64,000 nucleotides of DNA from contig JBAYVO010000001.1 of assembly GCA_041674545.1 (NCBI GenBank), positions 89,057-153,056 on the forward strand. Direction: 5' to 3'. Below are positions 5,859-63,469 of this stretch, in pieces. Source of the stretch: Candidatus Nanopelagicales bacterium (GTDB taxonomy: Bacteria; Actinomycetota; Actinomycetes; S36-B12; UBA10799). The position numbers and the translations under genes were made by a program. A model generated the notes under the pieces. The model made no database searches. It was not told the DNA's origin and saw only the letters and a program-made list of their open reading frames with translations. How positions within the stretch are numbered: the stretch's first letter is position 1; each line of letters starts with the position of its first letter.

Positions 5859-5895
5859 GCGTGACTACCTCTAGTCATGGCCCGACGTCCAGCGC

Positions 5896-30132: not shown

Positions 30133-30145
30133 GGTATCTCCTTGC

Positions 30146-32763: not shown

Positions 32764-33120
32764 TCAGACCTCAGCGATGTTGGTGTCGTCGTACGACACC
32801 GTCTGGCCACGGTTGGGGATGGCGTAGACGCCGACAGCACCGGCTGCAGCGATGAGCATCTGAATCAGCTCGACCGTCTGGATGCCGCCGACGATGGCCG
32901 ACGCCAGCACGGTCAAAATCGCCGCGAGTGCCGACACGATGAACTTGGTGTACTTCGCTCCCGGGATGTTCGGTGCGGTGAACACGGCAGCGGCACCGAC
33001 GCCGATGATGGCGACGTTGACCCACTCCACAGAGTCCACAACGTTGTCACCCGCAAGCGCCGCCACCAGAGCAGCGGCGATCGTGACAACCACCTGCATG
33101 ACGAGCTTTGCGTACTTCAT
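32764..33120 (-). CDS. Integral membrane protein (3-4 TM), holin-like
   Basis: 118 aa, almost entirely hydrophobic Ala/Val/Ile/Gly helices. GAGGAGGG RBS. Confidence 0.6.
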   Translation of the reverse strand: MKYAKLVMQVVVTIAAALVAALAGDNVVDSVEWVNVAIIGVGAAAVFTAPNIPGAKYTKFIVSALAAILTVLASAIVGGIQTVELIQMLIAAAGAVGVYAIPNRGQTVSYDDTNIAEV

Positions 33121-33186: not shown

Positions 33187-33369
33187 TTAAACTCCTCGAC
33201 CCCGTACAAGTCCCAGGATCGCCAGAATGAACAGGACCACGGCGGCGATGTAGCCGATGATCATGACAATGGAGCCGCCCGGGGCAGGGATGTAGGGCGG
33301 AACGAAGATGGCGATGAGCAGGCAGATGACTGCGCCGATGAGGCAGCCGATCCAATTTGTACGCACCAT
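33187..33369 (-). CDS. Small membrane protein (2 TM)
   Basis: 60 aa: WIGCLIGAVICLLIAIFV...IVMIIGYIAAVVLFILAILGLV. First gene after the terminator at 33394-33421. Confidence 0.55.
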   Translation of the reverse strand: MVRTNWIGCLIGAVICLLIAIFVPPYIPAPGGSIVMIIGYIAAVVLFILAILGLVRGRGV

Positions 33370-35349: not shown

Positions 35350-35364
35350 GCAGGTGTTCTACCC
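35347..35364 (-). repeat. Start-associated junction motif copy
   Basis: Minus strand GGGTAGAACACCTGCATG. The TAG is the stop of 35359..35565 and the ATG is the start of 35137..35349. Confidence 0.8.
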
Positions 35365-35565
35365 GCTAGTGAGCTGCCAGAGCCCCCACAAAGACAGGCC
35401 AAAGGCCACCACCGTGATCACCGGCAGCAAAACCCACGCCCACTGCCCCGCCTCATCCGAGATGCAGAACAGAATCACCCACAACATCCACACGAGGAAC
35501 GCCGCAGCGACCGCACCAAAAAAGACTCCGAGCAACTCCAAAAACGGAGGAAGCGTGATCGTCAC
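35359..35565 (-). CDS. Small membrane protein (2 TM)
   Basis: 68 aa: LGVFFGAVAAAFLVWMLWVILF...WAWVLLPVITVVAFGLSLWGLW. GTGA overlap at the start. Confidence 0.55.
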   Translation of the reverse strand: MTITLPPFLELLGVFFGAVAAAFLVWMLWVILFCISDEAGQWAWVLLPVITVVAFGLSLWGLWQLTSG

Positions 35566-46875: not shown

Positions 46876-49800
46876 TCAGTCATCCTCCTCATCAGGGTTC
46901 CACGCGAGCGCTGCCGCCTTGACCTTAGCCAAAGCTTCCGCCTTGCCCGCAGCTACCACGAACCTATCTTCAATCGTCAAACCACGGATGTTTGTTACAC
47001 CCTTGCTCTTCAGGTAGTCGATGAACGCCTGACGTTCCGACTGACTGTTAAACACAGCAAGTTCGATGTCATCCAACACCGAGATTCCATGCTTAATCAT
47101 GGTCTCGTTATGGTCTTGAATGCTGGTAGCTTTCTCTAAGCTAAAATCAGACTTAATTTTACGATTGTCAATTTTACCCCAACCATCGCCCTTAAAGGAA
47201 TAGTTGGTAGTTTTTGCCAACACACGCGGGTTTACATAAATTTGAGAGTAATCAAAGTTATTGCCGGTCTGATTAGTGCGAACAAAGTTAAAATGTCCAG
47301 CGCCGTTAGTAATGTCCGGCGGAGAAGACTGACCTTCAATAACCTTGCCCATCATACGAGGACGCGCTTCGTTCGACCACAGACCGCCCGTACGAAGAAT
47401 CGTACGCATATCACCCATACCGATGGAGTGCGTAGCAAAAGGCTTGTTCTTGAGGTACTCCCAGTCCGCATCAAAACGATCCCAGTACGGGTTGCCGCCG
47501 ACTACCTCAGGACGCGCCACGTTCGGATGCGAGAACTTCGGCATGTACTTCTGCTTATCTACAAACTCTTTAACTTGCTCTTTGCTGGTCAATCGAGACC
47601 ACGCCTCGCGCCAACGCTCCAGCTCTTCTTTAGCCTGAAGCGCAGGAGTGCCCTCCGTGCCGCCCGGCAAATTGTCCCGGACGTAATCCACCACGTCTTT
47701 GTGCTTACCCTGCCCCTGGTCCCTGCGATCCGTGAGCACGCCGTACAGGTGGCGCCAGTAGAACAGCTCCATGTCGGTATCCTCCGCAGCAGACAGGTCC
47801 AATCCCATCTGCTGCAGCGCAGTCATAGCTGCCTCGGTTCCCGTATGCGTGCCGTCGTAGTTGCGCACCTTGATCTTCAGACCGCCCTGCTGAGACCGCC
47901 GCACGCCATCTTCGTCGTGCCACGACCGGTACTCGATTTCTGTACCGTCAGGGAGTTCCACAACATACGTTGTACCCGACTGAAGAATTTGGCTATTCCA
48001 GCCCGATGGCTTAGATCCATTCAGAACCATATTGCCGTCATCGTCGATCGAGCCCTGCTCGTAGTAGGACACAACCTTCTTGACCTTGAAACCGTCCGAC
48101 GGAGCTGCAATCTCCGGCGTGATAGCTGGCCTCTTCGGAGGCTCGAACGGGAACGGGTCAAAATCACCGTGCTTAGACTGACCGCCAAAATCGATTAAAC
48201 GCTGTACGTCTTTGATTTTGCCATCGTAGTACGACAGCAAATTCTTGTACGTTTCCTTGGCTTCTGTCCAGTCAGCAAACTGTGATGGATAAATACCCGA
48301 TTCGACCTCAGCAAGCTTCTTCTCAACATCCGCTTTCATGGTATTAAAATTAGCCATGTGCGACGAGTTGAAGTTTTGATCTCCTAACCCGTTGTGATGA
48401 GAAACAGTCTTAGCAGCAGCAAGCGAGAACTGCGAATAGCTAGTAGCTCCCGCGTTACTCAAAAACTCAGTCTTTTGATAACTGTCTGAAACATCTCCTA
48501 CTGTAACCGTATTGCCAGCGCGAGCCACAAGCCACTTGCGCAACTCCTTGTCCGCCTGCTTACGGACCAGCGCAGTCATATGCAGCTCGGTACCACCCTG
48601 CGACGTCTTCACCTCTTGCGCCAGAACGTAGTTCTCCTCCAGCGCATTGCCGCCAAAGAAAGTAGAAGCTCCCGCATGTCCGGCTTCCTTCACCCGGGTG
48701 AGATGGTCCTCCGAAAACCCGGAGAACACATGCTTGCCGAGGCTCTGGCTCTTGGCTGGCTTCTCGCGACCCAGCTGCGAGTAAATACCGTCCCAGAACT
48801 TCTCAAAATCCTCGGACAATGCGTTCTTACGCGCCAGCGCCTGCGACACCAGGTCAGGCAGATCCTTGGCAGACGTCCATCCAAAGTTGGTGCGGTTCTG
48901 TAATCCCTCAGTGATTGTCGAACCCCAGGACGCATCCGATACCGACGACGTCTTCCGTGCCTGCGCCATAGATGCGAGGTACAACGAGTCCACATCCGCG
49001 TCGGAATACTTTCCTGACAACGCAGCCTTGTAGACCTTGTCGTAGTAAGGGGTGGTCCAGTCGGACAACTGCCCGACCTTCAGCTGCATAGAGCCCGGCT
49101 TGCCGAAACGCACGAAGGAACGGGCGATGTCGATCGGCATCACGCGCTTGCCATCGGGCATCAACAGGAAGTTGTTGCCGTGAGCGTCATCGTTTGCTGT
49201 GGCCCAGTCCTGCACGTGCGCGGCCATCAGATCCTTGAGTGCCGAGATGGGCAGGTCAACAGGATCAGTGTTCATCAAGGTTCCCTGGCTGGGGACCTTG
49301 GCCTGGAACTGGCCGAACTTGCCATTAAACGTTCCCAGCTCCGACGCGGCAACCCGGAATCCCGCAAGCTCCGCCAACTTGTGGCTGGCGTGCTCGATCT
49401 CAGCGCGGAACTTCTCAGGAGCGACCTTGAACAGGAACGGGTTGCCCTGCTCATCGGTCAGCTGCCAGATCTCCGAAGACGAGCCACCACCGAGCGGAGG
49501 CTGCTCCGCATTCATGGTGTAAGTCTTCTTCTCAAGCTTCAACGCATCATGCACAAAGCCCAGCAGTGCAGGAACGTTGTAGTGTGAATCCTCGTAAATC
49601 TTGCCCAGCAAATCCTGCATCTGCTGCTTGGCAAAAGCCGGGCTCTTGAACGTGGCAGAACCTTCAGGGGCCGCAGCTACCGCGTGCAGCGCGACCAGCT
49701 GTGCCTTTACCTCGGGCGTCTGACTAGTCAAGAACTCAACAGACTTGTCACTGACACCAACATGGTTCAAATAAGTATCAAGCTGACTGTTGTTCCATCC

Positions 49801-52800
49801 CTGCACCGCAACCTTGGAATAATCCATTTCAGGAAAACCTTCGGGCAACGGGACTGCATAGCCGGGAGCGTACTTCTCCACTGACGGAAGAATAGGCGAA
49901 GAATGAATGTCGCCCTCGTTGACATTTTTCTGTCCAAGATACGAGAGAGAATCAGTTCCCAGCTTGTTCCCTGAAGCGTGTGCGATTGCCCAAGAACGCT
50001 TTTGGCTACTGCTTAACCCTGTAGGATGCTGCATGTTTGCGGCAAGCAAATACGCATCTACAGTCTCACTCTGCCAAAGATGCCAAGAGTCAGTGTTGGG
50101 CCACGATCCGTCAACTTTGATTCCAGCAGGAATCTCGCCTGAGACTAACGGCGGCATCTTCTTCTTGACGAAGCCGGACGCGTTCACCGGGTTTTCAGGA
50201 GAACCCGGGTGCACCTTGCGCTTACCGTGCTGCTGAACCTTCTTGGACTCGATCTCGTAAGCCTTGTCCCACTCACCGTTGGCCCACGCGTACATCCACG
50301 CGACCAAGTCTTCCTTCTTGGTCGAGCTGTTCAGATGCTTGGCTGCAATGTTCTCGAACCCGGAATCCTTGGCCCACTTCTTCGCAGACGCCAACAGCAC
50401 CGGCTTCTCGACCCAGTCCGGCCTGATGTGCCCCGCCACCATGAACGGCTGCAACACCGGGGCGTCCGCATCGAACATGTGCGACGGCGTAGACGCGACC
50501 GGAGAGTTCTGCGGTGGCACCCAGAACATGTCACCGGACTCCACGGCGTTCATGAACTCATCGATGTCCATGTTTGGGCCACTGGCGTCCAGCGTGACGT
50601 GCATTCCCTCGCCGTCGGTCCAGGTGCCCAGCTGCACCCCATTCCAATAACCGTCCGGCGAGACCTCATCGGGCGCGTCCGGGGTGTTGGGGACCGGGTC
50701 GACCGCAGGAGCCACCGATGGGCCGTCGTAGACGCTGTCGAGCTTGGAGACCAGCTCTTCCGGGCTGTAGACCTTCAGCACCGAGCCATCGGCATCGATC
50801 TTCTGGACGAGACCGTCAGGATCGAACTTGTAGTGCGCCACCTGCGGGGCAGCACCCGTAGACAGCAGGTTCCCCTGGCCCAGGCCAGTCAGATACACAA
50901 ATTGGTTATTCTTCGCAGCAGTCTGGAAAGCCTGCGAGAACGGCGTGGTAGTCGGCGCCCACGCGTCCTGCATAGAAGCGTTGCCTGCTTTGGCTACCAG
51001 GTCGCCCAGGTACGGAGACTGCAACGCAGCGCCCGCCTGATCCTCCAAAGACGGGGGCCCGGAATCCTCCAGATCTCCCTGGAACACCGCCGTATGCGTC
51101 TGGAATGACAGAGTGTCATCCATCAGGTTCATGGCAAAAAACGATGGTGAAATGCCCTCAGGCCCGTTCTCGCCTACCTTGAAAACGTTTCCGTTGTACT
51201 GATGCTTGTAATCGCCGATCAGGAACCCGTTAGGGTCCTTGAGCGCCTCGGTCATCCAAGAGTCCGGACTCACCTGCAACGCCGTGGGAGCAATACCCTC
51301 GCTGGTGAGATAGGGCTTCACCACATCAATATGCGCCATTGACTCACCGGATGGCGTCGCAATGAGCACCGAGCCGTCCGGGTACACGCTGTAAGTAGAA
51401 GTCCCTGAAGCGTAGTGACCGACCTGCACTCGATTCACGTAGACAGCATTAGGATCCGTCGGAAGATCCGACAGCTTATCCCAAGTACCTAACTCAAGCA
51501 TACTCTTGACAAGATCAGAATCTGTCATATGAACAGTCTGACCAGAAGACGTGTTAATGCTGTGCGCTGTTCCGTCCGGGTAGACCTTGAGCGCCATACC
51601 ACCCGGAGAGGTGTAGAACCCGACCTCAGGCAACTCCGAACCCGCAAGATCCGTGCCTAATCCGGAGGTCTGGAACTTGTCACCAATCTTGTCGGCGATC
51701 TGTGCAGAACTCAAATTCTTGAAATCTCCATCGTTGATTTCAACAACAGAGTTCTCTTCAGGATTGATCTCGAAGTAAGTTCCGCCCTCGAAATAACCAT
51801 CATCGGTGTCGATGTACCCGGAAGAACTCCAGAAATGGGTTTCACCAGTCTTGTGCGCCTGCTGGAACGCGTCCGCAAAAGAATTGTCAAAAATGCCATC
51901 CGTGTCCTTGGCATTTTTGACCAATTCCTGCAGCGAAAGAGAACCGCCCGACACGTTGGTGGTCGGCGGACCACTGAAGAAATCTTCCACCGGGTCCGGC
52001 GCGCCCACATCTACAGGAGTGACATCCGGATCCGAATCAGGTCCAGTCACAGGCGTCGGGTTGGACGCCATGTTGTCGGCCTTGCCCTGCAGGACAGCGA
52101 TAACCGCTTCCTTGAGCTTGCCGTAGTGAACCTTGCCGTTACCGCCCTTAAACGGAGCAGACAGCGGGTCCGCCTCGATGAAGGTCTTGAGATCCGCCTT
52201 GGCGAGCGGAGAGTCAATCGCCTTGAGCGGCGCCTTCACGCTAGTAGAGCTGGAATTCTTCACCGCATCGATAGCGTCGAGAATTTCCTGCTTGGTAACG
52301 CTCTTCCCTGCAACGGACACCGTAGACGGAGCAGTCGGCGCTTCCGGCGGATTGTTGAGCTGCAGAACAGCATCGTCCATGTGCTTCTGCAGCGCATCCG
52401 ACACGGCCTGCTTCCACGGCGCCGAGTCCAAATGCGAATCGACACCGAGGCTTGCTCCGAACCCGTTCTGGCCCATTCCCTTGAACGGATGTCCCGCAGG
52501 GAGATGGCCCATCAACGTGTAGAACTGACCATCCGGGTCCAATCCCAGCGGCGGGCCATCCCACAAGCTCTTGAGCAACTGCAGCTCGTTGACGCTGGCC
52601 TCGACAGTACCCAGCTGCACCTTGGGAGAATCATCCGGACCGGGCGTCTCGACAGGACCATTCTGACCTGGACGTGTCTTCACATTCAGATAGTCATTCA
52701 ACCCATCGAACAGCACCTTGTTCATCTCATGAGCCGGAGTACGGCCCACGAACTCGCTCCAGTCCACGCCATACGCGAGCGGGTTATGCCCTACTTGCGC

Positions 52801-55800
52801 CAGCTTGCCGGACATCGTTTCACCCTGATCAAAATCGATGTCGGCAAAAAAGTCCTGCATCTCCTTGATCTGCGCCTGCGACGCCAGCACACCCTGGATA
52901 CCCGGGCTGGCGTGCGGAACCTCGGGCAGATCCGCAGCCGGGTTCGGAACAGGAGGGTGATCTGTCTGGTGCTTATCCAGAGCATCCTGCAGCAGCGCGA
53001 TCACAGCAGGCTTGAGCTTGCCGTAATGAACCTTGCCGTTGCCTCCCTTGAAAGAATCAGTCAACGGAGACGTGTTGGCGTGTCCCTGCAGGTCGACACC
53101 CGACAGCGGGGAACCAATAGCCTTGAGCGGCTTCTTCACACCGGTCTCAGACTTAGGCGACTTCTGCAGCGCGTCAAGCGCTTCCGCCACCGCCTGCGGG
53201 GTGACCGGAACACCGCCGAACGAAATGAAACCCGGAGACGCAGGCGCGTGCGTGTGTCCAGAGCCCTGCGGATCCACCGCGTGCAGCGCAGCGTGGATCG
53301 CTTCATGATCAGAAAGCCCGAGCGAGGACTGATGCTCTTCGAGACCGTGCGACTCCTGCAGGTGCGCCACGGCGGGAGCGGCATCCAACGGCGTAGCACC
53401 GGTCTGCTGATGCGCCTTCTGCAACGCGGCAATCAGAGCAGGCTTGGTCTTGTTGTTGTAGTACGCCTTGTACGGCGCGGCTACCTCGTGGAACTTGCCT
53501 GCCGCCAGCGGGGATCCCACGCGCTTGAGGTCCGCCGCGACGTTGCCCGACGGGTTCGCAGACAGAGCGTTGATCGCCTGCTCCAGCTGCGTCGACGTCA
53601 TCTCGAACCCACCGACCAACGCCTTCCCCGAACCCGGGAGAGGCTGGGTGTTCTGGATCGACACGCCCTCGTCAGTGACGTTGTTGAGGCCCGAAAGCAG
53701 CTGCGCGCGAGCAGCCGGATTGTCCGCGCCGCCGACCTTCTTCGCCTGCACACCCGCGCCCTGCGGGTTGTACTTGATCAGATCACCATCGGGCTGCAGG
53801 ACGTAGAGCGTGTCCTTGGACTTGCCCGACTTGTAGACCTGCGAGCCCTCCTCCATCTGCACGGAGTGCGCGCCGACCGAAAACAACGACGGACCGTTCT
53901 TGACCACACCGCCAGGACCGCCCTCGGGCGCTTCAGGCTGGCTGAACTTCGGACGCACCGGAGCGGACATATCCTCGACGACATCACCGGTCTCAGGGTC
54001 CGTCACCGGCTCGGCATCCGCCGGGACAGCAGGCGCGCGACCGTCGAGACCGAACTCCTTGATGTCTTTTAGAATTCGCTTGTCACGGTTGACATTCAGG
54101 AGACTCTCGGCTTCCTCCACAGAGACCTTCTTGACCGAAGCAGTCTCCGAGCCTCCCGGCTCGTACGGAGAAGCGTCATCGGGCAGCGGCTGACCGCCGG
54201 TCCGCTTTCCGACGTACATGCGGACCTTGCCGCCGCCGGAGCGCTTGAAGTCGCCAAGATATCCGGTGATGTCTCCTTCGAGACCGGTCTCTTCCCACAG
54301 CTCCTTATGTGCGTTCTGCTGCGGAGAAAGATTGGCTTCGATACCGCCCTTGGGAAACGTGTGCTCGTAACCTGCGTAGTGATCCTTGGGCTCGTAAATC
54401 CAGATGTAACCGTCAGGCTCGATCAGCGCGATGCCCGTAGCCATCCGGCCCTCGGTGTCCGGCAACGCAGGCTCACCCGGGATCGCGACATCCGGCTTGG
54501 CCGTGAAGTCCGGCATCTTCTGACCGTTGGCGTTCTTCTTGGACTGCGGACGATCGCCAGGCTCGGAAGTGTTCTGCGATCCCGAGGATCCCGAAGCGTT
54601 CTGCTGTCCAAGGACATTCTGCTGCTCTGGGGCCGGGATTCCCTTGGGGACAGCCTTGCCACGATCGCCGGGCTCGGCCTGATTTGGAATCGACGGAGCT
54701 TCAGGAGCAGAGCCCCCGCCCGCCTTAGACGCGTTGAACTTGCGCTGCCAATCCTCATTGAAATCGTCGTCTTCAACTTCGTCGACATCACCGAGGCTGC
54801 CGTTTGCAATCTGCTTTACCGCCACCTGTTGCAGCGGAAAACTCTTCTTAAAGTCAGACTTGTAAATTTCACCAGTTCCGTCTGGATTAACCTTTACTCC
54901 ACCCCAGTTGGAATTATCAGTGAAAACGTAAGAACCCTCTGGGAGCGTTCCATTCTTCTTCAGATCCTCATTCATTTCCATGAGCGGACCCGGACCATCG
55001 GGATCCGGAACATCAGGATCGTCAGAAATTTTTGTTACTGTTCCGTACTGCTTGTGCAGAGAAAGGAACTGAGCTGTCTTAGCTTTATCGCTATCGACAG
55101 TCTCACCCTTGTGAATAGAAGTAGAAGAACCATCCTGGTGAACAATAACCTGAGTATCTTCATCACCAGGCATGTCAACTTTATAAGTGCCTGGCTTCCA
55201 GTTCAGGTCGATAGAACCGCCCTTGGGCGTGGCCTTATCCGCCGCCTTCTGAGCCTTGTTGATGGCCTTAGCCTGCTTAGCAGAAACCTGCTTCACATTT
55301 GGCGAAGGCAGTGCTCCACCAACATCCGGAATCTTCATTCCAGTCTTAGTGTCGTAGTAATAGCCCGACACGTGCTGAAGATGACCGTTGACCATTCGCG
55401 TGTACGCCTTCACGTGCACGATCGTGGCCGCAATATAGTCGTCTCGATCTTCAGGAGACACAGTCATCGCCCACTTGGCGTACGCCTGCATTCCCTGCGC
55501 GGTCAGTCCGACCGTCGGCGCGCTAGCCGGGAAGTAGATCACCAGCGAGCAGCGACAGTTTGGGTGACGCGGAGGCGTACTCAACACCTTGGTGTAGGGA
55601 ACCGGCTCAGAATCAGGAACCTCGAACGGCTCTCCGAGCGGCACGTGCTGACCGTGCAAACGAGTACACATGGGGCACGGAGGGTTCACCAAATCGAAGC
55701 GAGCCACCCACAGCTTGTGTGCTGTCTCAGAAAGCAGCTCCGCCAACGCTTGCAGGAACTGCTCGGTAGCCGCACCACGACCCGCCTGCACCGCCGAGAC

Positions 55801-56241
55801 AACCGCCAGCTCCGCGCGGCGCAGCATCTCCGCGAGCGCCTTAGCCTTGTCCTTGGCACCCTTGGCTACCGCAACCTGGCCAGCCAGGAAATCCGTGACC
55901 AGCTGCGTGCCCAGCTCCTCGCTGGAGAACACCACCGTGTCCATGAGCGCGGTCGGCAGATCCAACGCCTCCGCCTGCGCCCGGCCGAACCGAGCACCCT
56001 CATCGACACCCGCCGACAGCGCACGACGGATGAGCGCCACCGAACCCGCGAGCAACGCAGTGGTGACCAGCGGAGAGCCATCTTCCTCTGACTGCGCGTC
56101 GGTCAACCGCTGGCCGTAGAGCACCCGCATGTCCGCCACAAACTGCTGCTCCGCCGCAGCCGCGAACGTGCGCGAGGTATCCACCAGACCCAGCAGCTCT
56201 ACGAGATCCTGCTCGATCGGCGTCAAAGCCGGGGTGGTCAC
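46876..56241 (-). CDS. Giant MuF-like minor head protein fusion (3121 aa) with Nudix-like, kinase-like and PARP-like ART-like modules
   Basis: Uninterrupted 9366-nt ORF coupled to the portal gene (TAGTG). MuF/SPP1 gp7 motif PPCPMCTRLHG...PPRHPNCRC at aa 187-231. Nudix-like FPKGGIE...KELWEETGL at aa 629-654. Kinase-like GGGSS...FKV...DDAHGNNFLL...IDIARSF at aa 2250-2376. H-Y-E ART-like motifs at aa 2935-3050. Confidence 0.9.
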   Translation of the reverse strand: MTTPALTPIEQDLVELLGLVDTSRTFAAAAEQQFVADMRVLYGQRLTDAQSEEDGSPLVTTALLAGSVALIRRALSAGVDEGARFGRAQAEALDLPTALMDTVVFSSEELGTQLVTDFLAGQVAVAKGAKDKAKALAEMLRRAELAVVSAVQAGRGAATEQFLQALAELLSETAHKLWVARFDLVNPPCPMCTRLHGQHVPLGEPFEVPDSEPVPYTKVLSTPPRHPNCRCSLVIYFPASAPTVGLTAQGMQAYAKWAMTVSPEDRDDYIAATIVHVKAYTRMVNGHLQHVSGYYYDTKTGMKIPDVGGALPSPNVKQVSAKQAKAINKAQKAADKATPKGGSIDLNWKPGTYKVDMPGDEDTQVIVHQDGSSTSIHKGETVDSDKAKTAQFLSLHKQYGTVTKISDDPDVPDPDGPGPLMEMNEDLKKNGTLPEGSYVFTDNSNWGGVKVNPDGTGEIYKSDFKKSFPLQQVAVKQIANGSLGDVDEVEDDDFNEDWQRKFNASKAGGGSAPEAPSIPNQAEPGDRGKAVPKGIPAPEQQNVLGQQNASGSSGSQNTSEPGDRPQSKKNANGQKMPDFTAKPDVAIPGEPALPDTEGRMATGIALIEPDGYIWIYEPKDHYAGYEHTFPKGGIEANLSPQQNAHKELWEETGLEGDITGYLGDFKRSGGGKVRMYVGKRTGGQPLPDDASPYEPGGSETASVKKVSVEEAESLLNVNRDKRILKDIKEFGLDGRAPAVPADAEPVTDPETGDVVEDMSAPVRPKFSQPEAPEGGPGGVVKNGPSLFSVGAHSVQMEEGSQVYKSGKSKDTLYVLQPDGDLIKYNPQGAGVQAKKVGGADNPAARAQLLSGLNNVTDEGVSIQNTQPLPGSGKALVGGFEMTSTQLEQAINALSANPSGNVAADLKRVGSPLAAGKFHEVAAPYKAYYNNKTKPALIAALQKAHQQTGATPLDAAPAVAHLQESHGLEEHQSSLGLSDHEAIHAALHAVDPQGSGHTHAPASPGFISFGGVPVTPQAVAEALDALQKSPKSETGVKKPLKAIGSPLSGVDLQGHANTSPLTDSFKGGNGKVHYGKLKPAVIALLQDALDKHQTDHPPVPNPAADLPEVPHASPGIQGVLASQAQIKEMQDFFADIDFDQGETMSGKLAQVGHNPLAYGVDWSEFVGRTPAHEMNKVLFDGLNDYLNVKTRPGQNGPVETPGPDDSPKVQLGTVEASVNELQLLKSLWDGPPLGLDPDGQFYTLMGHLPAGHPFKGMGQNGFGASLGVDSHLDSAPWKQAVSDALQKHMDDAVLQLNNPPEAPTAPSTVSVAGKSVTKQEILDAIDAVKNSSSTSVKAPLKAIDSPLAKADLKTFIEADPLSAPFKGGNGKVHYGKLKEAVIAVLQGKADNMASNPTPVTGPDSDPDVTPVDVGAPDPVEDFFSGPPTTNVSGGSLSLQELVKNAKDTDGIFDNSFADAFQQAHKTGETHFWSSSGYIDTDDGYFEGGTYFEINPEENSVVEINDGDFKNLSSAQIADKIGDKFQTSGLGTDLAGSELPEVGFYTSPGGMALKVYPDGTAHSINTSSGQTVHMTDSDLVKSMLELGTWDKLSDLPTDPNAVYVNRVQVGHYASGTSTYSVYPDGSVLIATPSGESMAHIDVVKPYLTSEGIAPTALQVSPDSWMTEALKDPNGFLIGDYKHQYNGNVFKVGENGPEGISPSFFAMNLMDDTLSFQTHTAVFQGDLEDSGPPSLEDQAGAALQSPYLGDLVAKAGNASMQDAWAPTTTPFSQAFQTAAKNNQFVYLTGLGQGNLLSTGAAPQVAHYKFDPDGLVQKIDADGSVLKVYSPEELVSKLDSVYDGPSVAPAVDPVPNTPDAPDEVSPDGYWNGVQLGTWTDGEGMHVTLDASGPNMDIDEFMNAVESGDMFWVPPQNSPVASTPSHMFDADAPVLQPFMVAGHIRPDWVEKPVLLASAKKWAKDSGFENIAAKHLNSSTKKEDLVAWMYAWANGEWDKAYEIESKKVQQHGKRKVHPGSPENPVNASGFVKKKMPPLVSGEIPAGIKVDGSWPNTDSWHLWQSETVDAYLLAANMQHPTGLSSSQKRSWAIAHASGNKLGTDSLSYLGQKNVNEGDIHSSPILPSVEKYAPGYAVPLPEGFPEMDYSKVAVQGWNNSQLDTYLNHVGVSDKSVEFLTSQTPEVKAQLVALHAVAAAPEGSATFKSPAFAKQQMQDLLGKIYEDSHYNVPALLGFVHDALKLEKKTYTMNAEQPPLGGGSSSEIWQLTDEQGNPFLFKVAPEKFRAEIEHASHKLAELAGFRVAASELGTFNGKFGQFQAKVPSQGTLMNTDPVDLPISALKDLMAAHVQDWATANDDAHGNNFLLMPDGKRVMPIDIARSFVRFGKPGSMQLKVGQLSDWTTPYYDKVYKAALSGKYSDADVDSLYLASMAQARKTSSVSDASWGSTITEGLQNRTNFGWTSAKDLPDLVSQALARKNALSEDFEKFWDGIYSQLGREKPAKSQSLGKHVFSGFSEDHLTRVKEAGHAGASTFFGGNALEENYVLAQEVKTSQGGTELHMTALVRKQADKELRKWLVARAGNTVTVGDVSDSYQKTEFLSNAGATSYSQFSLAAAKTVSHHNGLGDQNFNSSHMANFNTMKADVEKKLAEVESGIYPSQFADWTEAKETYKNLLSYYDGKIKDVQRLIDFGGQSKHGDFDPFPFEPPKRPAITPEIAAPSDGFKVKKVVSYYEQGSIDDDGNMVLNGSKPSGWNSQILQSGTTYVVELPDGTEIEYRSWHDEDGVRRSQQGGLKIKVRNYDGTHTGTEAAMTALQQMGLDLSAAEDTDMELFYWRHLYGVLTDRRDQGQGKHKDVVDYVRDNLPGGTEGTPALQAKEELERWREAWSRLTSKEQVKEFVDKQKYMPKFSHPNVARPEVVGGNPYWDRFDADWEYLKNKPFATHSIGMGDMRTILRTGGLWSNEARPRMMGKVIEGQSSPPDITNGAGHFNFVRTNQTGNNFDYSQIYVNPRVLAKTTNYSFKGDGWGKIDNRKIKSDFSLEKATSIQDHNETMIKHGISVLDDIELAVFNSQSERQAFIDYLKSKGVTNIRGLTIEDRFVVAAGKAEALAKVKAAALAWNPDEEDD
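52072..53604 (-). repeat. Three diverged copies of a ~65-85 aa module inside the MuF giant
   Basis: Protein copies are (E/Q)xIxAL...(K/R)xxGSPLA...FKGGNGKVHYGKLK(P/E)AVIA(L/V)LQ at aa ~880-945, 1010-1092 and 1310-1390. DNA identity is visible between cttgagcttgccgtagtgaaccttgccgtt (~52111) and cttgagcttgccgtaatgaaccttgccgtt (~53011). Confidence 0.8.
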
Positions 56242-57882: not shown

Positions 57883-59778
57883 TTACAGTCCGGGCAACTT
57901 AAAGCTGTTGCCTGTCTGCATGCCGCGCCACACATCCTCCGCTCCAACAGGAGCATCACCGGCCGCGCTCGACACCCAAAACAGGTCTTGGGGGTCTTCG
58001 TCTGGATCCGTCGTCTCCTCGGCCCCGCCCGTCGTCACGGCGGTGATGACCGCGCCGCAGACAGCATCGGATAAATCCTTAGACCCGCCCGGAGGATGAT
58101 CGATCTTGCGCTTCTTGGGATCCTGCTGAAGATGCAGCAGCTCATTGCGCAGCAGACGGCTGTAGGGAATCTCAACCCGACCCTCTTCGACCAGGCTGCG
58201 GAACTGCCGGTACGGCTCATCGGTGCGGTCCATCGACAACAGCGGAGCCTCAATGCCGCCGACCTGAAGGATCTGTCGGTTGTCGACGCTCTGCCATCCG
58301 TCCATCGACGCCGCGCGGATCGGGAAGCCTCGCTGCTGCAGCTCGAACACCAACTGTCGATAGAAGCGAAGCTGGATCTCGCGGGGAGGATCCGATTCCA
58401 GGTCCGCCTCCAGAGCAATTGCGGTGTCCACCTTCACCACCGGGCGCTCATCCCAGACGAGCTGACCGTTGTACTCCGGATCCTTGCGTGCGAACTTGTC
58501 CCAGCTCACGACGTGCGCCATGGCGAACCCGGCACGATCACCGTTAAGCGCAAGGTCGCAGTGAGTGGCATACGTAGCGCCGGGGATAGGCTTCAGCGAC
58601 TGCGGAATGACAAAGCGAGGGTGCCATCCACCCTGCGCGAACTCCCAGTGGACCTCGATCTCGGGAGTGTCGACCATCGCCGAGTCGACCGAATTCTCGG
58701 AACGGAAATACGGCGGGAGCATGGTGCGCTCGGGCATGCACAGATACGCCGCGCGAGCCCATTCCGGTTCCGCCTCGAAGTCCGCCACCAGCTCTTCAGG
58801 AACCGGGACCGGAGAGATCTCCTTCTCCAGCTCCACGAATGTCGTGCGCGCCAGCAGCGGATTGAACTCCCACGACGGCATAGGGCCGACGATGAAGTGC
58901 TTAGAATCCGCACCCTTGCGCTCGATGTCTTGCTTAGACTCAGCATGCAGCTGCAGAATCGGCGATCCGTGATACCGGGGATACGAAATGCGAACGTTCT
59001 TGAATGTTCGTGGAAAACGAGTCACCGCCGAGGAACGCAGCATCTTGATGATGCCCTCCGCAGAACGCATCGGGGTGCGGGTACCGCCGCTTCCCGTGCG
59101 GGCGATGTCATCAGCAGTGCGGAACGCATCGATCTCGTCCGCCACACCGAGAATCAGGTTCAGACCCTCCTGGGTCTCTGCATCCGAGGATCCAGACACC
59201 GACTCCAGGCCACGCGCCCACTCGATCGTATTCTTCTTAGGATCACACTTGTCCGCAAACCACCCCTTGCGGACAATTCGAGTCATAGGCTCGAAATACG
59301 CACGGCGTGCCTGATCCTTGGTAGAAGCCACGTTGAGCATGTGGATCGACTCCGAGGACGGCATGCCGAAGTAATCACGCGGGTCCTTGAGACACAGCAG
59401 CAGATACGAGATGCGCAACGCCATCAGGCGAGCAATCAAGTCCTTGCCGCCACCCTTGCCGACCAGCAACGTCAGGAAGTTCGCCATCGGAATCGGCGCC
59501 CAGTAATCACCGAACTCCGCCTGCATGTGCGGGTACAGCTCCGGGTAATAGACCCGTTCCGCAGCCCGGAGCGCCGTAGCCTGCGGGACAGACAACGGAG
59601 ACATGCCGATGTAATGCTTGTCCGAGATGAAGACGTCCAGCGGGACAGGCTCTTCCGCGAACAAATCATCGCAGACGCCCCGCGCCGTCGACAGACGCTC
59701 TTCCGAACCGAGCTGGCGCAGCCATTGAGCCGGAGTCAGAGCGTCATTCTGCTCAACGGCACGTAGACGAGGGGGCAT
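57883..59778 (-). CDS. Terminase large subunit
   Basis: 631 aa. Walker A LLVGKGGGKD, Walker B-like LILGVADEID, and a C-terminal nuclease-type region. Lies upstream of the portal gene. Confidence 0.85.
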   Translation of the reverse strand: MPPRLRAVEQNDALTPAQWLRQLGSEERLSTARGVCDDLFAEEPVPLDVFISDKHYIGMSPLSVPQATALRAAERVYYPELYPHMQAEFGDYWAPIPMANFLTLLVGKGGGKDLIARLMALRISYLLLCLKDPRDYFGMPSSESIHMLNVASTKDQARRAYFEPMTRIVRKGWFADKCDPKKNTIEWARGLESVSGSSDAETQEGLNLILGVADEIDAFRTADDIARTGSGGTRTPMRSAEGIIKMLRSSAVTRFPRTFKNVRISYPRYHGSPILQLHAESKQDIERKGADSKHFIVGPMPSWEFNPLLARTTFVELEKEISPVPVPEELVADFEAEPEWARAAYLCMPERTMLPPYFRSENSVDSAMVDTPEIEVHWEFAQGGWHPRFVIPQSLKPIPGATYATHCDLALNGDRAGFAMAHVVSWDKFARKDPEYNGQLVWDERPVVKVDTAIALEADLESDPPREIQLRFYRQLVFELQQRGFPIRAASMDGWQSVDNRQILQVGGIEAPLLSMDRTDEPYRQFRSLVEEGRVEIPYSRLLRNELLHLQQDPKKRKIDHPPGGSKDLSDAVCGAVITAVTTGGAEETTDPDEDPQDLFWVSSAAGDAPVGAEDVWRGMQTGNSFKLPGL

Positions 59779-59802: not shown

Positions 59803-60462
59803 CTAAGCGGTCATCGCGTAGTAGTCCAGAGGACCCGGAATCCACAGCTCCGATGCCAGCCGGTACAACTCACGGCTGAACGAATCCGACGCAGCTCCGT
59901 ACTTCTCGCAAAACACAAACCCCTCGGCCAACAGCTCCGGGATGCTCATCGAAGCACGCTGCGAGTACTTCCGAGCAGCCGCAGCGCCCGAGATCCCCGA
60001 CGCCTTCTCCAAGCGTCGCAACACCGCCTGATACCCCGCCTCCAGCGAACTCGGGTACCGACGATGGATGGGCACCTGGAACAGCAGGTGCCCCCACTCG
60101 TGCGTAAGAATGTCTTCCCAACAATCTCCTACGAGAGCGTTGGTTTCACGCAGTCCTAGAAGCTCGACCTCAGACAACGGGTTCAGCAGTTTGCGCTTGT
60201 TGATCTGCAAAACTCCCTCAACGGTAGTCATGCAGAAGGTAGAAGCATGCGCGTAGTCGTCGCCTAGATCTTTAGCGTGAACCTTCTTAATGCCTGCGGC
60301 CAAGTACGGCCACGCTTCACTCAAGTCGTACAGGTGCTGACGAAGCTGAGGAAGACGCGAGTACTTCCGCAACTGCCAGCTAAACGGGATGAGCAACTCA
60401 TGCCCGGGAGGACGCGCCGCGCTCGCAATCGGCTTCACCGACGGAAGCAACGACATAGACAT
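59803..60462 (-). CDS. Putative zinc metallopeptidase (HExxH)
   Basis: 219 aa with ILTHEWGHLLF. Occupies the slot where a small terminase subunit is usually found. Confidence 0.5.
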   Translation of the reverse strand: MSMSLLPSVKPIASAARPPGHELLIPFSWQLRKYSRLPQLRQHLYDLSEAWPYLAAGIKKVHAKDLGDDYAHASTFCMTTVEGVLQINKRKLLNPLSEVELLGLRETNALVGDCWEDILTHEWGHLLFQVPIHRRYPSSLEAGYQAVLRRLEKASGISGAAAARKYSQRASMSIPELLAEGFVFCEKYGAASDSFSRELYRLASELWIPGPLDYYAMTA

Positions 60463-60485: not shown

Positions 60486-61079
60486 TCATTGTTGTGCAAG
60501 TTTCGCCCATACAATTACGTTCGAGAGGTAACGATGGGCTGCGCGATCCAGCGTTCCGCCGCACGTGATCAAGCGCAGCTCGGCACCAGAAGTGTTCTGG
60601 TACACATCAGCTGTGGGAAATTCATTCTTGTCAATAGTTGACGTTCGGTACACCTCGAACGCCGCGACAGTCCCATCCTCGCGCTGAACCTCAATGCGAT
60701 CACCCTCGACCACGCTCTTGAGGTTGGCGAAGATTCCCTGCTCACCGCCACCGTTGACGTGCCCCAAGATGACGGCCGGTCCCTTAGCGCCCGGACGAGG
60801 GCCAAGGTTGTACCAGGACGCCAGCATGGGCTGCTCGACCGGAGGCTCCAAATGTCCGCCCCGAGCATCGAGTCCCAGCCCGTCAACCATGACAGGACCA
60901 TCGATGTTGCGCGCGAACACCGATACATTCACCGGACGCGGCTGCACACCAGGCAGAACATCAGCAGGCGCAGACTGCGCGGGCGTGCTCGGCGCGTCCG
61001 GAGCCGCTGCAGTCCCACACCCAGCCAGGACTGCAGCGAACACCAGAACAGAGGCCAAAAGCCCCGCTACACGACTCAC
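60486..61079 (-). CDS. Class F-type sortase, lipoprotein
   Basis: Lipobox AAVLAGCG. ASWYNLGPRPGAKGPAVILGHVNGGG (His), FANLKSVVEGDRIEV, AELRLITCGG (Cys) and RYLSNVIVWAKL (Arg) give the actinobacterial class F sortase layout. Confidence 0.8.
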   Translation of the reverse strand: MSRVAGLLASVLVFAAVLAGCGTAAAPDAPSTPAQSAPADVLPGVQPRPVNVSVFARNIDGPVMVDGLGLDARGGHLEPPVEQPMLASWYNLGPRPGAKGPAVILGHVNGGGEQGIFANLKSVVEGDRIEVQREDGTVAAFEVYRTSTIDKNEFPTADVYQNTSGAELRLITCGGTLDRAAHRYLSNVIVWAKLAQQ

Positions 61080-61681
61080 TCCGTCGAACCGTCCCCGGTC
61101 TCAGGCGCATCGTTGGGAACCACGACAACATCCGAGCCGCCTGGAACCACCGTGACCGTAGTCAGAGGCGGAGCTGTGGTGGTCGGGGTGACAGTCACAG
61201 TGGTCGGCGGAGCCGGAGCGCACGCCTTCAACTTGTCATCGATCAGTAGATTGAGCTTGGCCTGCGCGTCTGCCAGAACCTTCTTCAGCTCCGTCAAAGG
61301 CGTGGTGCTTGCAGCATTGATAAACGCCGTCACCGCAGCAACGAAATCACCCTGAGCCTTGGTCAGCTTGGTCTGCAGGTCCAACAGAACCGCAACCGAC
61401 GCCTTCGCTGCAACCGCCGAAGCGTACGCATCTCCAGCCTTCGCAAGCACATCCTGCTTCAAAAGAACCTGCGTCTGCAAACCCGCGAGCGCGGTATCCG
61501 CGTCAGCCAACTTGTCGGAAGCGTCGACTACCACCTGAGCCTGAGCCACCACACGAACTGTCGCGGTCACACACCCAGCAGAGTCCGGGCCAACGGCAGG
61601 TGCTGCTGCCGCCAGCGGAGCAAACACTGACAGCGAAGCGGCTACCAAGCCGCTCACCACCAGCAAACGGAACTGCTTCAT
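61076..61681 (-). CDS. Secreted Ala-rich helical protein ending in a sortase-like APETG motif
   Basis: Signal peptide MKQFRLLVVSGLVAASLSVFAPLAAAAP, a helical Ala-rich middle, a Pro/Thr-rich tail and the C-terminus ...VVVPNDAPETGDGSTE. GTGA overlap with the sortase start. Confidence 0.7.
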   Translation of the reverse strand: MKQFRLLVVSGLVAASLSVFAPLAAAAPAVGPDSAGCVTATVRVVAQAQVVVDASDKLADADTALAGLQTQVLLKQDVLAKAGDAYASAVAAKASVAVLLDLQTKLTKAQGDFVAAVTAFINAASTTPLTELKKVLADAQAKLNLLIDDKLKACAPAPPTTVTVTPTTTAPPLTTVTVVPGGSDVVVVPNDAPETGDGSTE

Positions 61682-61729: not shown

Positions 61730-62413
61730 CTATGCAGTCTCACTTACACAAGTGTAAGTAGGAAAGCTGTCGTCCGCGTTTGATCGTGTGCAGCGGATGT
61801 TTTCCAACGGGCTAGAACTAGGAAAAATGAACTCCGCTGGCGGCTGACCCGGAGCACCCGCAGGTCCCTGCGCCCCAGGCGGACCCGTGTCGCCCTGCGC
61901 CCCCTGCACGCCCTGAGGACCCTGCACGCCCTGGATACCCTGCGCGCCAGCGGTGCCCGGCTCACCCGGAGTACCGGCCGTACCTGGCTCACCAGGCGTA
62001 CCCGCGATACCCGGCTCACCAGGAACACCCTGCGGGCCCGTAGCACCGGGGATGCCCGGAATGGGGGCGATCTTGACCCGCTCAGCCTGCGAACACAGAC
62101 CGGACGGCAGAGAACTCTTGGCATCGGAGTCCGCGCACGCTTCAGAGATTTGGCTCGCCAGCGTCTTAGCCTGCCCAGCGGTGGCATCGCGCTGCTGCAC
62201 CACCAAATCCTTCTGGGTGGTGACATTTTCGACCTGGCGGTTGCTGGTCTTCACGGACAACACCAACGCCGTAGCCGCAACGATGAGAGCAACCCCGACC
62301 AGCACCGGCCACAGACGCTTGAGCAGCGAAAGAAAATCCGGACGGTTATGTCGAGAACGATTTTTGGGACGGTTCGCGGGTACGCCCGCAGGCATCGGGA
62401 ACGCTCGGGTCAT
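61730..62413 (-). CDS. TM-anchored collagen-like protein
   Basis: Basic N-terminus, a TM segment ([20 protein letters not shown]), a short coiled coil, 24 uninterrupted G-X-Y triplets and a ~35-aa Cys-containing C-terminal knob. Confidence 0.8.
61842..62057 (-). repeat. Collagen-like G-X-Y repeat tract (24 triplets)
   Basis: [72 protein letters not shown]. Confidence 0.9.
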
Positions 62414-62859
62414 GTCAAGTCACCACAGTTCGGAGGCGGTGGCAGAGGTGCGGCTGCCCGAACCCTCTCCAATTCACGGATTGCAGAAATATACTTCTGA
62501 GTCTCACGAGCAGCCGCTTCACGATCACCAGCCAGCGTGGCGGTCAACAGCTCCACCTGAGCCTGCGTCTCCACGCGCTGAGCTTCACTGCGATCAGTCA
62601 GCGCCTGAGAAACAGCTTTATTGTATGTAATCTGGCAGGAAGTAGTTCGATAGTAACTAATTCCGGAAAGAACAACTAAGATGAGGATGGCTAATCCAAC
62701 AAACGAACGGAAAAGCTCAAACTTGGTAGCCCTCACCCTCTTACCTCCGGTCGTTGTTGCATCAGCCTGGGCAGACCGAATGGCCAGCCAACATGTAGCC
62801 CAACCCAGCACAAAGCCGCCACCAGACCACAGCAGTGCGGAGTACAGGGAAGGAGCCAT
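62410..62859 (-). CDS. Membrane protein (2 TM) with a C-terminal coiled coil
   Basis: 149 aa with 4-nt overlaps to its neighbours. Confidence 0.6.
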
Positions 62860-63095
62860 TAGTCGACCTTTGCCGGTTCCGGATCTTCCTCTTCTTTATC
62901 CTCTTCAGGATTGCCGTTCTTGTCCTTGTTGGACCTACGCGACAGGGCTAACGCTCCACCAACAATAGCCATAAAAATACCATTGATAGCAACGTCCGGA
63001 CTGTAGTCCTCAACAATGAACTGCGCCGCAAAATTAATGGCCCAGACCACAGTGACGACAACAATGATCGCCGTCGCCAGTGGCTTAGGGATCAC
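62859..63095 (-). CDS. Small 2-TM protein with a highly charged C-terminus (holin-like topology)
   Basis: 78 aa: two hydrophobic helices followed by SRRSNKDKNGNPEEDKEEEDPEPAKVD. Confidence 0.55.
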   Translation of the reverse strand: MIPKPLATAIIVVVTVVWAINFAAQFIVEDYSPDVAINGIFMAIVGGALALSRRSNKDKNGNPEEDKEEEDPEPAKVD

Positions 63096-63469
63096 TCTTT
63101 CGTCCTATGCTCAGGCCGATTAACCGGCGGAACCTCATACCGAAGTCGCCACGCTCCCCACAGCATCAGACTGACGCCGATCAAGCTGAGAGCAAGGCGA
63201 TAATGAGCATGATCGCCAATGTGGTCAACTTCAGTACCGATCACGATCATGGCAAACAAACACTGAGCAGTCAGTCGAGCCTGCTGTCCTGAAGCTCGGG
63301 CATTCAGCACTAACCGTGGTGTCCACACGATTAACGCAAGTCCCAACAACATCGTGATTACTCGTACAATGTCGACCCAAAAAACAAGAGGCCAGGCAAA
63401 CGGGGTGCCAGGTCCATCAGGAGCACAGAGTGCGTAGCAATCCCTTGCGTATAAGATTGTCGGTAACAC
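63092..63469 (-). CDS. Membrane protein (3-4 TM)
   Basis: 125-aa hydrophobic ORF with a 4-nt overlap downstream. Confidence 0.55.
   Translation of the reverse strand: MLPTILYARDCYALCAPDGPGTPFAWPLVFWVDIVRVITMLLGLALIVWTPRLVLNARASGQQARLTAQCLFAMIVIGTEVDHIGDHAHYRLALSLIGVSLMLWGAWRLRYEVPPVNRPEHRTKE

Follow-up and report, generated by a model that had tools for sequence, protein, structure and literature searches.

A membrane-anchored collagen-like rod protein in a coupled four-gene block of a large tailed phage: a possible envelope module of lysis-cassette origin

We report here on a block of four overlapping genes in a 64-kb stretch of metagenomic DNA (the window, by which we mean throughout the whole stretch analysed) that clearly stems from a large tailed phage. 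In block order the genes encode three predicted membrane proteins, g125, g78 and g149, and a membrane-anchored collagen-like rod protein, g227; all lie on the minus strand, as do the window genes throughout the 64 kb. An earlier note on this DNA, made from its letters alone, had described four consecutive overlapping genes for three membrane proteins and a collagen-like protein, and the start-to-stop overlaps of GTGA (g125/g78), TAATG and ATGA bear this out. Comparison with related contigs (loci L0xx; relatives were sampled at about 45 loci) leads us to read the four genes, tentatively, as one translationally coupled late envelope module of lysis-cassette origin.

The four-gene block

No terminator-like site above shuffle expectation was found inside the block or in the run from it to the terminase gene. 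The stop codon of g227 is followed by a 48-nucleotide gap and a strong ribosome binding site (AAGGAG), and then by g201, a sortase gene (g197) that overlaps g201, a gene for a protein with a HEWGH motif (g219) and the terminase gene. We infer that the whole stretch from the four genes to the terminase would form one late operon.

The last product of the block, g227, consists in order of a basic N-terminus, a transmembrane (TM) helix, a juxtamembrane helix with two Cys residues, 24 G-X-Y triplets and a beta knob with two further Cys residues. The collagen assignment of the triplet tract is solid: Pfam Collagen (PF01391) matches with an E-value of 9.7e-16 and a score of 57.7 bits (cut-off 27.2), 20,000 shuffles of the residues of g227 gave no G-X-Y run longer than 7 versus the 24 observed, and PDB matches were to collagen chains only. 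Some nine Arg, Lys or His residues precede the TM segment. The AlphaFold2 model has a helix of 68 residues (27-94) with the TM segment inside it, no secondary structure in the collagen tract (a monomer prediction) and three strands at residues 194-226, where the predicted local distance difference test (pLDDT) is 84-94. One Cys pair, 93/107, lies in a short helical cap after the long helix and the other, 208/222, in the knob. Pfam, shuffling, hydropathy and AlphaFold2 are all in keeping with the earlier description of a type-II-anchored protein with 24 triplets and a small Cys knob. The protein presumably trimerises, and a triple helix formed by the 72 residues of the tract, with 0.286 nm per residue, would measure about 20 nm. 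Its PHROG alignments cover residues 46-190 (phrog_6320), 37-189 (phrog_1806) and 120-224 (phrog_18350), and these tail-fibre PHROGs may contain anchored members that were annotated from their collagen tract. No LPXTG-like sorting motif was found at the C-terminus of g227, which speaks against a sortase-linked rod; g227 as sortase substrate was rejected, the motif sitting instead in g201, the product of the next gene.

The remaining three proteins, like g227, were analysed with Kyte-Doolittle windows and the positive-inside rule, and g149 also with an AlphaFold2 model. By hydropathy g125 has one strong and two weaker hydrophobic segments and a basic C-terminal tail; the spread of its basic residues fits three TM helices with the N-terminus out and the C-terminus in, at the lower end of the three to four previously proposed. 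Its start site is uncertain: one public call begins at Met40, and relatives of 120-122 residues favour the long form. Homologues occupy the same position in L051 (4.8e-49), L014 (99 residues, 4.8e-05), L028 and L038, and L017 has a gene of 122 codons in the g125 slot that we equate with it by position only. Searches with g125 gave no match in Pfam, PHROG, NCBIfam or PADLOC.

The two TM helices previously noted in g78 were recovered, at residues 10-28 and 34-52; the protein also has an acidic loop, the TM segments are followed by the charged tail RRSNKDK...EEDKEEEDPEP, and this layout fits an N-in/C-in topology like that of class II holins or LysF1a. Size, number of TM helices and charged tail are thus holin-like in g78 and also in g125 (about three TM helices, basic tail). 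The PHROG matches of g78 are weak and none is to a holin family. Its homologues lie upstream of the rod gene in L005, L006, L011, L017, L029 and L051, and 57 homologous clusters, none of them named, are mostly 66-83% identical to it (the weakest about 44%). Across metagenomes the corresponding identities are 49-56% for g149 and 44-46% for g227, which suggests, from sequence comparison, that the small two-TM protein may be under stronger constraint.

For g149, hydrophobic segments at residues 9-27 and 49-67 precede a helix; AlphaFold2 (pLDDT 77) predicts helices at 3-37, 47-110 and 113-136 and then an unstructured Pro-rich tail, and the C-terminal domain would be extracytoplasmic. Cys23, Cys75 and Cys145 are invariant in four close clusters. 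Relatives occur in L005, L014 (164 residues), L026, L028, L029, L030, L038 and L051. PHROG 10261, a "membrane protein", matches at 6.7e-4, and a fold search against BFVD returned nothing significant (best E-value 0.043).

A family of anchored rods

The anchor of g227 defines a previously undescribed family of about 600 clusters at 50% identity, almost all of them metagenomic. A profile of the TM segment and the following L-A-x-Q-x-x-x-A-C...C motif, searched against 1.84 billion cluster representatives, matched 598 clusters at E<=1e-3, of which 80 reached <=1e-10, and the domain was nearly always N-terminal; g227 itself scores 1.3e-26. A word-indexed search likewise found many proteins of 200-260 residues sharing the g227 layout, and A86, C93 and C107 are invariant in 18 aligned family sequences. 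An N-terminal TM segment is present in every one of the best 146 profile matches, 110 of which have at least 8 G-X-Y triplets (median 27.5). The remaining members have other stalk repeats, either AEIxxAVxxYLxxNPPxPGRxPT or a GRGI...TYTDG beta repeat; examples of stalks other than collagen are P0131, P0135, P0150, P0167, P0170, P0217 and the rod proteins of L005 and L006. At least three knob types exist and are swapped even between close relatives: the g227 type recurs in L007, L008, L009, L013 and gp25 of Arthrobacter phage ArV1, a protein with the GRGI...TYTDG stalk, and differs from that of the close relatives L011 and L051. These sequences point to stalks and heads being exchanged like cassettes while the membrane anchor stays constant.

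Cultured carriers of the family are ArV1, Arthrobacter phage KitKat and, presumably, KellEzio. In a BLAST search of 50,697 deposited phage genomes only gp25 of ArV1, there a "tail fiber protein", belonged to the family, and a chimeric query that combined 13 anchor domains with 8 knobs again recovered only ArV1 among cultured phages. Structure search with the g227 model matched only gp40 of KitKat, "hypothetical" in GenBank, which the anchor hidden Markov model confirms at 4.6e-10. Since both proteins have a predicted N-terminal TM helix, their tail annotations probably need revision. Against cultured phages, megablast of positions 57-64 kb found no match and tblastn of g227, P0029, the sortase and g149 nothing useful; sub-alignments of the family searched against viral contigs returned four loci only. 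A scan of species-representative bacterial genomes returned only a collagen match in a myxobacterial metagenome-assembled genome (MAG) and thus gave no hint of prophage copies.

Endolysins, holins and small partners beside the rod genes

The rod genes share a conserved neighbourhood with endolysin, holin and sortase genes. All loci read have the rod gene overlapping the stop codon of a small membrane-protein gene upstream. It lies within about 5 kb of an endolysin gene in 16 of some 19 informative related loci, and directly upstream of one in six. The endolysin encoded directly downstream of the rod is of the Amidase_2 plus PG_binding type in L007, where a holin of PHROG 9752 (2e-11) follows, of the Peptidase_M15_3 type in L008, of the GH25 type in L009/L010 and in L013 and of the Amidase_2 type in L015; in ArV1 it is gp26, followed by the holin gp27. 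The endolysin gene lies 1-5 kb downstream in L005, L006, L014 and six more sortase loci. L016 encodes, in order, an amidase-like protein, one further protein, a holin (PHROG 8269, 2e-17) homologous to that of ArV1, an 88-residue protein with one TM helix and a charged helix, the rod, and a two-TM protein; here the rod gene is downstream of the holin gene and inside the lysis cassette.

In the small upstream partners (81-106 residues) a short N-terminus leads into a TM helix, and a basic patch and a long charged helix follow; one gave a weak match (0.004) to a PHROG "Rz-like spanin". In L007 and L008 a four-TM protein of 143-153 residues precedes an 81-83-residue protein with one TM helix, and multi-TM and single-TM proteins of LysY/LysZ-like architecture precede the rod in three loci altogether.

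The terminase, portal and giant-protein backbone of the window is common to three other contigs, which show how the block behaves among close relatives. L051 (Joint Genome Institute, 89.8 kb) has the full window order: g125-, g78- and g149-like genes, rod, a gene for a 203-residue protein, sortase, g219-like gene and terminase. L017 has fibre genes, then genes of 128, 290, 91, 122, 79 and 149 codons and the rod gene before the contig ends. L011 has a 51-residue fragment resembling g125 (5.8e-08), genes of 81 and 147 codons, the rod, a g219-like gene and the terminase, and neither sortase nor g201. On this sequence comparison the membrane block g125-g78-g149-g227 appears to move as a unit (with g125 a fragment in L011) with the endolysin elsewhere, and the sortase pair, because it is absent from L011 and from most loci of the family, appears to be an optional insertion.

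The sortase and its candidate cargo

The sortase g197 matches Pfam Sortase at 4.9e-20 and the NCBIfam model class_F_sortase (NF033748) with 162.3 bits against a cut-off of 166, and we therefore call it class F-like. The GHV and LITCGG motifs, with their His and Cys, are conserved in four phage sortase homologues. Class F sortases usually carry a conserved Arg in an H-Y-R-D-N segment; the corresponding C-terminal segment reads HRYLSN, HHSYLDN, HHNYLSS and ARSYESN in the four phage sortases (alignment A5), where the position of the catalytic Arg is ambiguous.

The gene that g197 overlaps, g201, encodes a candidate substrate (Table 1), and proteins in the same slot end in FPVGAPDTGEE (L006), IPVGAADTGAA (L005) and VPVGGVATGG (L014). 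The slot protein of L051 ends in KGAPETGEGPANDQP-VWLLGGFGLIAAAGFAG-RK, an APETG motif to which a hydrophobic segment and a basic tail are joined, as in canonical wall-sorting signals. Homology of g201 and the L051 protein was rejected; they share motif and position only, with no phmmer match. That an unrelated protein has the same APETG motif with a canonical tail makes motifs of this type credible sortase signals and the slot a position for variable cargo. Throughout the phage sortase loci (window, L005, L006, L014, L018-L045 and L051) a secreted protein ending in P.GG[VA][DEAN]TG or APETG almost always precedes the sortase; these cargo proteins are mutually non-homologous and usually without hydrophobic anchor and basic tail, both of which the L051 protein keeps.

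Both the rod family and a class F-like sortase are present in the window, in four of the loci already named (L005, L006, L014 and L051) and in nine other viral contigs. L005 and L006, which are viral contigs of high GC (guanine plus cytosine) content, encode a tail fibre, g78- and g149-like proteins, a rod with a non-collagen stalk, a g201-like protein, the sortase, an endolysin (GH25 or amidase) and a holin-like protein; L014 encodes a g125-like protein, a one-TM partner, a collagen rod and a g149-like protein, followed after several genes by a secreted protein, the sortase and an M15_4 endolysin. Viewed from the sortase side, in 30 IMG/VR contigs with relatives of g197, an abutting upstream open reading frame (ORF) with a signal peptide ends in P.GG[VA][DEAN]TG plus at most 8 residues, without hydrophobic tail, in 21. 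An endolysin can be recognised at most about 2.5 kb downstream in 12 of the 30, and 11 carry the rod family, 10 of these within about 2.5 kb. The link to a sortase proposed in the earlier note is therefore real in that it recurs and loose in that it is optional. Sortase and rod as obligate partners were rejected, given that L011 and most rod loci are without sortase and 19 of the 30 sortase loci without detectable rod; the two are frequent neighbours in the same cassette region.

The wider genome

The window belongs to a longer metagenomic contig of 186 kb (ENA ERZ27247358), in which a protein identical to g227 from Met7 onwards is encoded. At NCBI, contig k141_2474284 stands inside the MAG Candidatus Nanopelagicales bacterium (locus tags WC054_01060/01065). 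As proteins of a phage contig are filed under a bacterial MAG, a phage genome has been binned into it, and the Nanopelagicales label may or may not indicate the host. Positions of the main features are collected in Table 1.

Table 1. Positions of the genes and features discussed, in window coordinates unless a contig is named
Feature	Positions	Strand	Description
g125	63092-63469	-	125 residues, GTG start; first gene of the coupled block
g78	62859-63095	-	78 residues, GTG start
g149	62410-62859	-	149 residues, ATG start
g227	61730-62413	-	227 residues, ATG start; collagen-like rod protein
g227, TM helix	62252-62308	-	Residues 36-54; Kyte-Doolittle mean 2.56 over 19 residues
g227, collagen tract	61841-62056	-	Residues 120-191; 24 uninterrupted G-X-Y triplets, 14 Pro in X/Y
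g227, C-terminal knob	61733-61840	-	36 residues, Cys208/Cys222, motif C.R....D..PTY.C
g201	61076-61681	-	Secreted: signal peptide, Ala-rich helical part, Thr/Pro-rich linker, end VPNDAPETGDGSTE; candidate sortase substrate
g197	60486-61079	-	Class F-like sortase, lipoprotein-type signal LAGC
g219	59803-60462	-	219 residues, HEWGH (HExxH) motif, directly upstream of terminase
Terminase	57883-59778	-	40.6% identical to terminase of Microbacterium phage Magritte
Giant ORF	46876-56241	-	3121 residues, after portal; NUDIX match on record
Giant ORF	16237-26115	-	3292 residues; presumed tape-measure protein by size and position only
Candidate holin	32764-33120		Multi-TM, 118 residues; PHROG 17055 (function unassigned), 3e-31
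Tiny TM ORF	33187-33369		Near candidate holin
Tiny TM ORF	35359-35565		Near candidate holin
Upstream cluster	65089-71841 (L002 555-7307)		Endolysin, soluble collagen-like protein, tail fibres
Rod gene, L005	9980-10804 (L005)		Non-collagen stalk
Rod gene, L006	9905-10750 (L006)		Non-collagen stalk
Rod gene, KitKat	29230-30169 (L049)		Cultured; predicted N-terminal TM helix
Rod gene, ArV1	5347-6279 (L012)		Cultured; predicted N-terminal TM helix

By terminase, Magritte is the closest cultured phage, and glycosyltransferase genes, not the four-gene module, lie upstream of its terminase. A counterpart of g219 is kept in L011 (HEFGH) and L051 (HEWGH). No family match was found for g219, which may resemble metalloproteases or serve as an accessory in packaging; no small terminase subunit was recognised. 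After the terminase come a Mu-type portal, the 3121-residue protein and the 3292-residue ORF, and giant proteins following the portal are found also in L011 (2925 residues) and L051 (2826 residues).

Beyond the upstream end of the window the order is endolysin, three small soluble proteins, a 188-residue soluble collagen-like protein, fibres of 307 and 722 residues and three unannotated genes. The endolysin combines M15_4 and PG_binding domains and has a PHROG endolysin match of 4e-31; the fibre proteins bear repeated GLGNVDNTSDANKP motifs. This cluster lies upstream of the terminase and apart from the main tail block, which runs toward window position 1, and the four-gene module sits between cluster and terminase. 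The module had been placed outside the structural block in the earlier note, and this needs qualifying: tail-fibre-like genes and the M15 endolysin gene lie 1.5-8 kb upstream, past the window end. The candidate holin is distant from both the endolysin and the four-gene block, and two further tiny TM ORFs lie near it.

Interpretation and alternatives

How might the four proteins act together? On the reading that we tentatively favour, g125 and g78 would be holin/antiholin-like or LysY/LysF1a-like membrane components, as their topology suggests. Both g149 and g227 would be anchored in the cytoplasmic membrane, with elongated bodies reaching into the cell-wall zone: g149 would contribute a long alpha-helix with a Pro-rich tail, of LysZ-like architecture, and g227 the juxtamembrane two-Cys helix, a collagen tract of some 20 nm that is presumably trimeric, and a disulfide-bonded beta knob. 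The rods might then act on wall-associated or membrane-anchored envelope polymers at about the time when the endolysin works, and could help the envelope to rupture or progeny to get out, on the model of LysZ, which is needed to overcome lipomannan/lipoarabinomannan. The secreted protein and the class F-like sortase encoded downstream would be a frequent, optional add-on to such a cassette.

Several observations weigh against this reading. The endolysin of this genome is encoded about 7.5 kb upstream of the module, with tail-fibre genes between; holin-like genes adjacent to an endolysin gene are thus not seen here, and homologues in L005, L006 and L029 lie 2-3 kb from one. The candidate holin at 32764-33120 is homologous (2e-14) to the protein encoded after the GH25 endolysin in L009, and with such a separate holin-like gene the four genes need not supply the holin. 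Searches of Pfam, PHROGs and NCBIfam with g78 and g125 returned no holin family, and phmmer searches of the window proteins against gp71-75 of phage Corndog, whose gp74 and gp75 are LysY and LysZ, returned nothing at E<=10 (Corndog being the only such phage compared). In KitKat the rod pair closes the tail block and no endolysin is encoded close by, and the last tail-fibre genes of phages also occupy the place between tail and lysis genes. In having stalks and knobs that can be swapped, the family resembles receptor-binding proteins; gp25 of ArV1 is annotated as a tail fibre and gp40 of KitKat as a "minor tail protein" in UniProt. An unusual lysis cassette, one of two options in the earlier note, thus has comparative support from the neighbourhoods of related rod genes; in the window genome itself the endolysin is remote and another holin-like gene exists.

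The other option was an envelope or surface-display module tied to the sortase. In such a scheme the rods and a sortase-linked peptidoglycan cargo would block superinfection, or the adsorption of progeny to wall and membrane debris after lysis, by display or receptor masking, and the closeness to lysis genes would merely mean that both act late or that accessory genes tend to insert at this site. We consider this main rival possible, if on the unlikely side. The class F-like sortase following the rod gene in five loci (the window, L005, L006, L014 and L051), together with the frequencies of TG-ended upstream ORFs (21/30) and rod genes (11/30) among sortase contigs, is what it would lead one to expect, and a conserved motif on variable cargo, as in the APETG protein of L051, has the look of a display system; variable knobs and stalks would suit binding to variable surface structures. 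Comparative co-occurrence thus speaks for some tie. However, the sortase pair is absent from L011, L007-L009, L013, L015, L016, ArV1 and KitKat, the rod protein has no sorting motif, and display does not explain why most members are without a sortase and tightly placed between LysZ-like genes and endolysins. The knob is unlike the tail-fibre proteins of the same loci and gives no sign of a copied receptor-binding tip; a mimic of the phage's own fibre tip was rejected, as no similarity was found within any locus. PADLOC defence-system models matched none of the seven operon proteins. Exclusion proteins of Gram-positive phages, moreover, are usually encoded in early or lysogeny modules, which also weighs against display.

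It is improbable that g227 is a virion fibre, that is, a collagen-like minor tail or tail-fibre protein whose N-terminal helix serves virion attachment or membrane insertion. Its PHROG tail-fibre and minor-tail alignments do reach partly beyond the G-X-Y tract (residues 37-119 and 192-224), the annotation of gp25 of ArV1 agrees with it, receptor-binding proteins typically exchange stalk and knob as modules, and the rod gene follows tail genes in most loci, an ambiguous position. Yet all members examined have a basic N-terminus, a hydrophobic helix of 19-23 residues and Cys pairs only on its C-terminal side, a combination that fits an exported ectodomain. The rod gene is always coupled to genes for small integral membrane proteins and not to tail genes, in L016 it lies downstream of the holin gene inside the lysis cassette, and in the window lineage the fibre genes are set apart from it by three genes that are not tail-like. 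Current annotations, finally, appear to rest on collagen similarity alone.

That lysis depends on g125 and g78 alone, acting as holin and antiholin, with g149 and g227 unrelated accessories that happen to be co-transcribed, is highly improbable: their class I-like and class II-like holin topologies and the far greater conservation of g78 (mostly 66-83%) than of its neighbours (44-57%) are as one would then expect, but it is the rod gene, not g78 or g125, that spans the widest range of lysis cassettes, always coupled to an upstream partner, and other loci carry an additional recognisable holin.

A bolder version of the lysis-cassette reading would make the rods a new class of lysis component: a type II anchored trimeric rod, of collagen or another repeat stalk, with interchangeable Cys knobs and LysZ-like partners, which would extend through the wall and bind polymers linked to wall or membrane, leading to envelope rupture or release of progeny. 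In a sizeable subset of phages a class F sortase of the phage would, in addition, covalently fix a variable cargo protein, with an xAPETG or GG-V-x-TG signal and often no hydrophobic tail, to the host wall. As it stands we think this unlikely to be right in full.

The rod family bears on how phages of Gram-positive and actinobacterial hosts complete lysis beyond holin and endolysin. To the accessory proteins LysZ (bioRxiv 10.1101/2025.06.24.661397) and LysF1b (PMC13056207), described only in 2025-2026, it adds a large, mostly metagenomic family of membrane-anchored rods coupled to LysZ-like genes and endolysins, whose members are currently unnamed or labelled, probably wrongly, as tail fibres. 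Full-text literature searches found no paper that joins a collagen-like protein with actinophage lysis-cassette or transmembrane themes, and none on phage-encoded sortases. Class F-like phage sortases with dedicated candidate substrates recur at one and the same locus; if the sortase-cargo reading is true, this would be the first sortase system serving a virus. If rods or cargo act on wall polymers or lipoglycans, they could point to new mechanical elements of the actinobacterial envelope, and could also offer a new sortase specificity for protein engineering. On a practical level, the cultured Arthrobacter phages ArV1, KitKat and presumably KellEzio offer a direct experimental route.

Relation to known systems

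The lysis cassettes of phages of Gram-negative bacteria encode two-component spanins (Rz/Rz1), in which the i-spanin, a type II membrane protein, has an elongated domain in the periplasm and Cys residues of functional importance. Unlike these spanins, the module has no outer-membrane lipoprotein partner, and an outer membrane is not expected in the likely host. None of the four proteins has a lipobox, the only one nearby (LAGC) being that of the sortase, and no significant sequence match to spanins was found.

Collagen-like tail-fibre and minor tail proteins (PHROGs 6320, 18350, 366 and 1806) resemble g227 in G-X-Y tract, small C-terminal domain and a position following tail genes; g227 differs in its predicted N-terminal anchor, in its coupling to membrane proteins and, across the family, in its endolysin and holin neighbours. 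The LPXTG-anchored bacterial adhesins Scl1 and Scl2 and Legionella Lcl are likewise surface-displayed collagen-like rods, and the NCBIfam matches to them are confined to the G-X-Y tract, with g227 scoring far under the cut-off (45 vs 325 bits). In these proteins a sortase attaches the C-terminus, whereas g227 would be held by an N-terminal TM helix and has no sorting motif. Collagens XIII, XVII, XXIII and XXV, MARCO and SR-A have a cytoplasmic N-terminus, a TM helix, a trimerising juxtamembrane helical segment, a collagen rod and a C-terminal head. The domain order of g227 is that of these eukaryotic type II transmembrane collagens and receptors, by analogy only: homology is limited to the G-X-Y repeat, and g227 is tiny and has another head.

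Closer parallels lie in recently described actinophage lysis cassettes. In cluster F1 mycobacteriophages, LysF1a has 77-88 residues and two TM domains in N-in/C-in topology, and LysF1b has a single N-terminal TM domain, a basic patch and a highly charged C-terminal domain (PMC13056207). By topology, g78 with its 78 residues, two TM helices, N-in/C-in orientation and charged ends matches the description of LysF1a, and in architecture the small partners directly upstream of rod genes match those of LysF1b and LysZ; the hosts differ, and no collagen-like partner has been described in the F1 cassettes.

[quoted passage not shown] The overcoming of these lipoglycans has been shown for LysZ only. 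In the AlphaFold2 model g149 shares the order of TM helix, long helix and Pro-rich region, and differs by an extra N-terminal hydrophobic helix and by having no C-terminal helix. The rod protein g227 is like LysZ in its disordered N-terminus, TM helix and long helix leading to a Pro/Gly-rich rod, and has a collagen tract and Cys knob in place of the alpha-helical body and C-terminal helix. In L007 and L008 a four-TM protein, which matches the published architecture of LysY, and a one-TM protein with a charged helix precede the rod beside the endolysin. The lysis-cassette placement of LysZ is seen for rods in L005-L009, L013-L016 and ArV1, whereas the window block precedes the terminase, apart from the endolysin. 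Accessory membrane proteins are thus a known feature of actinophage lysis cassettes; what is new here is the collagen-rod architecture and its recurrent sortase companion.

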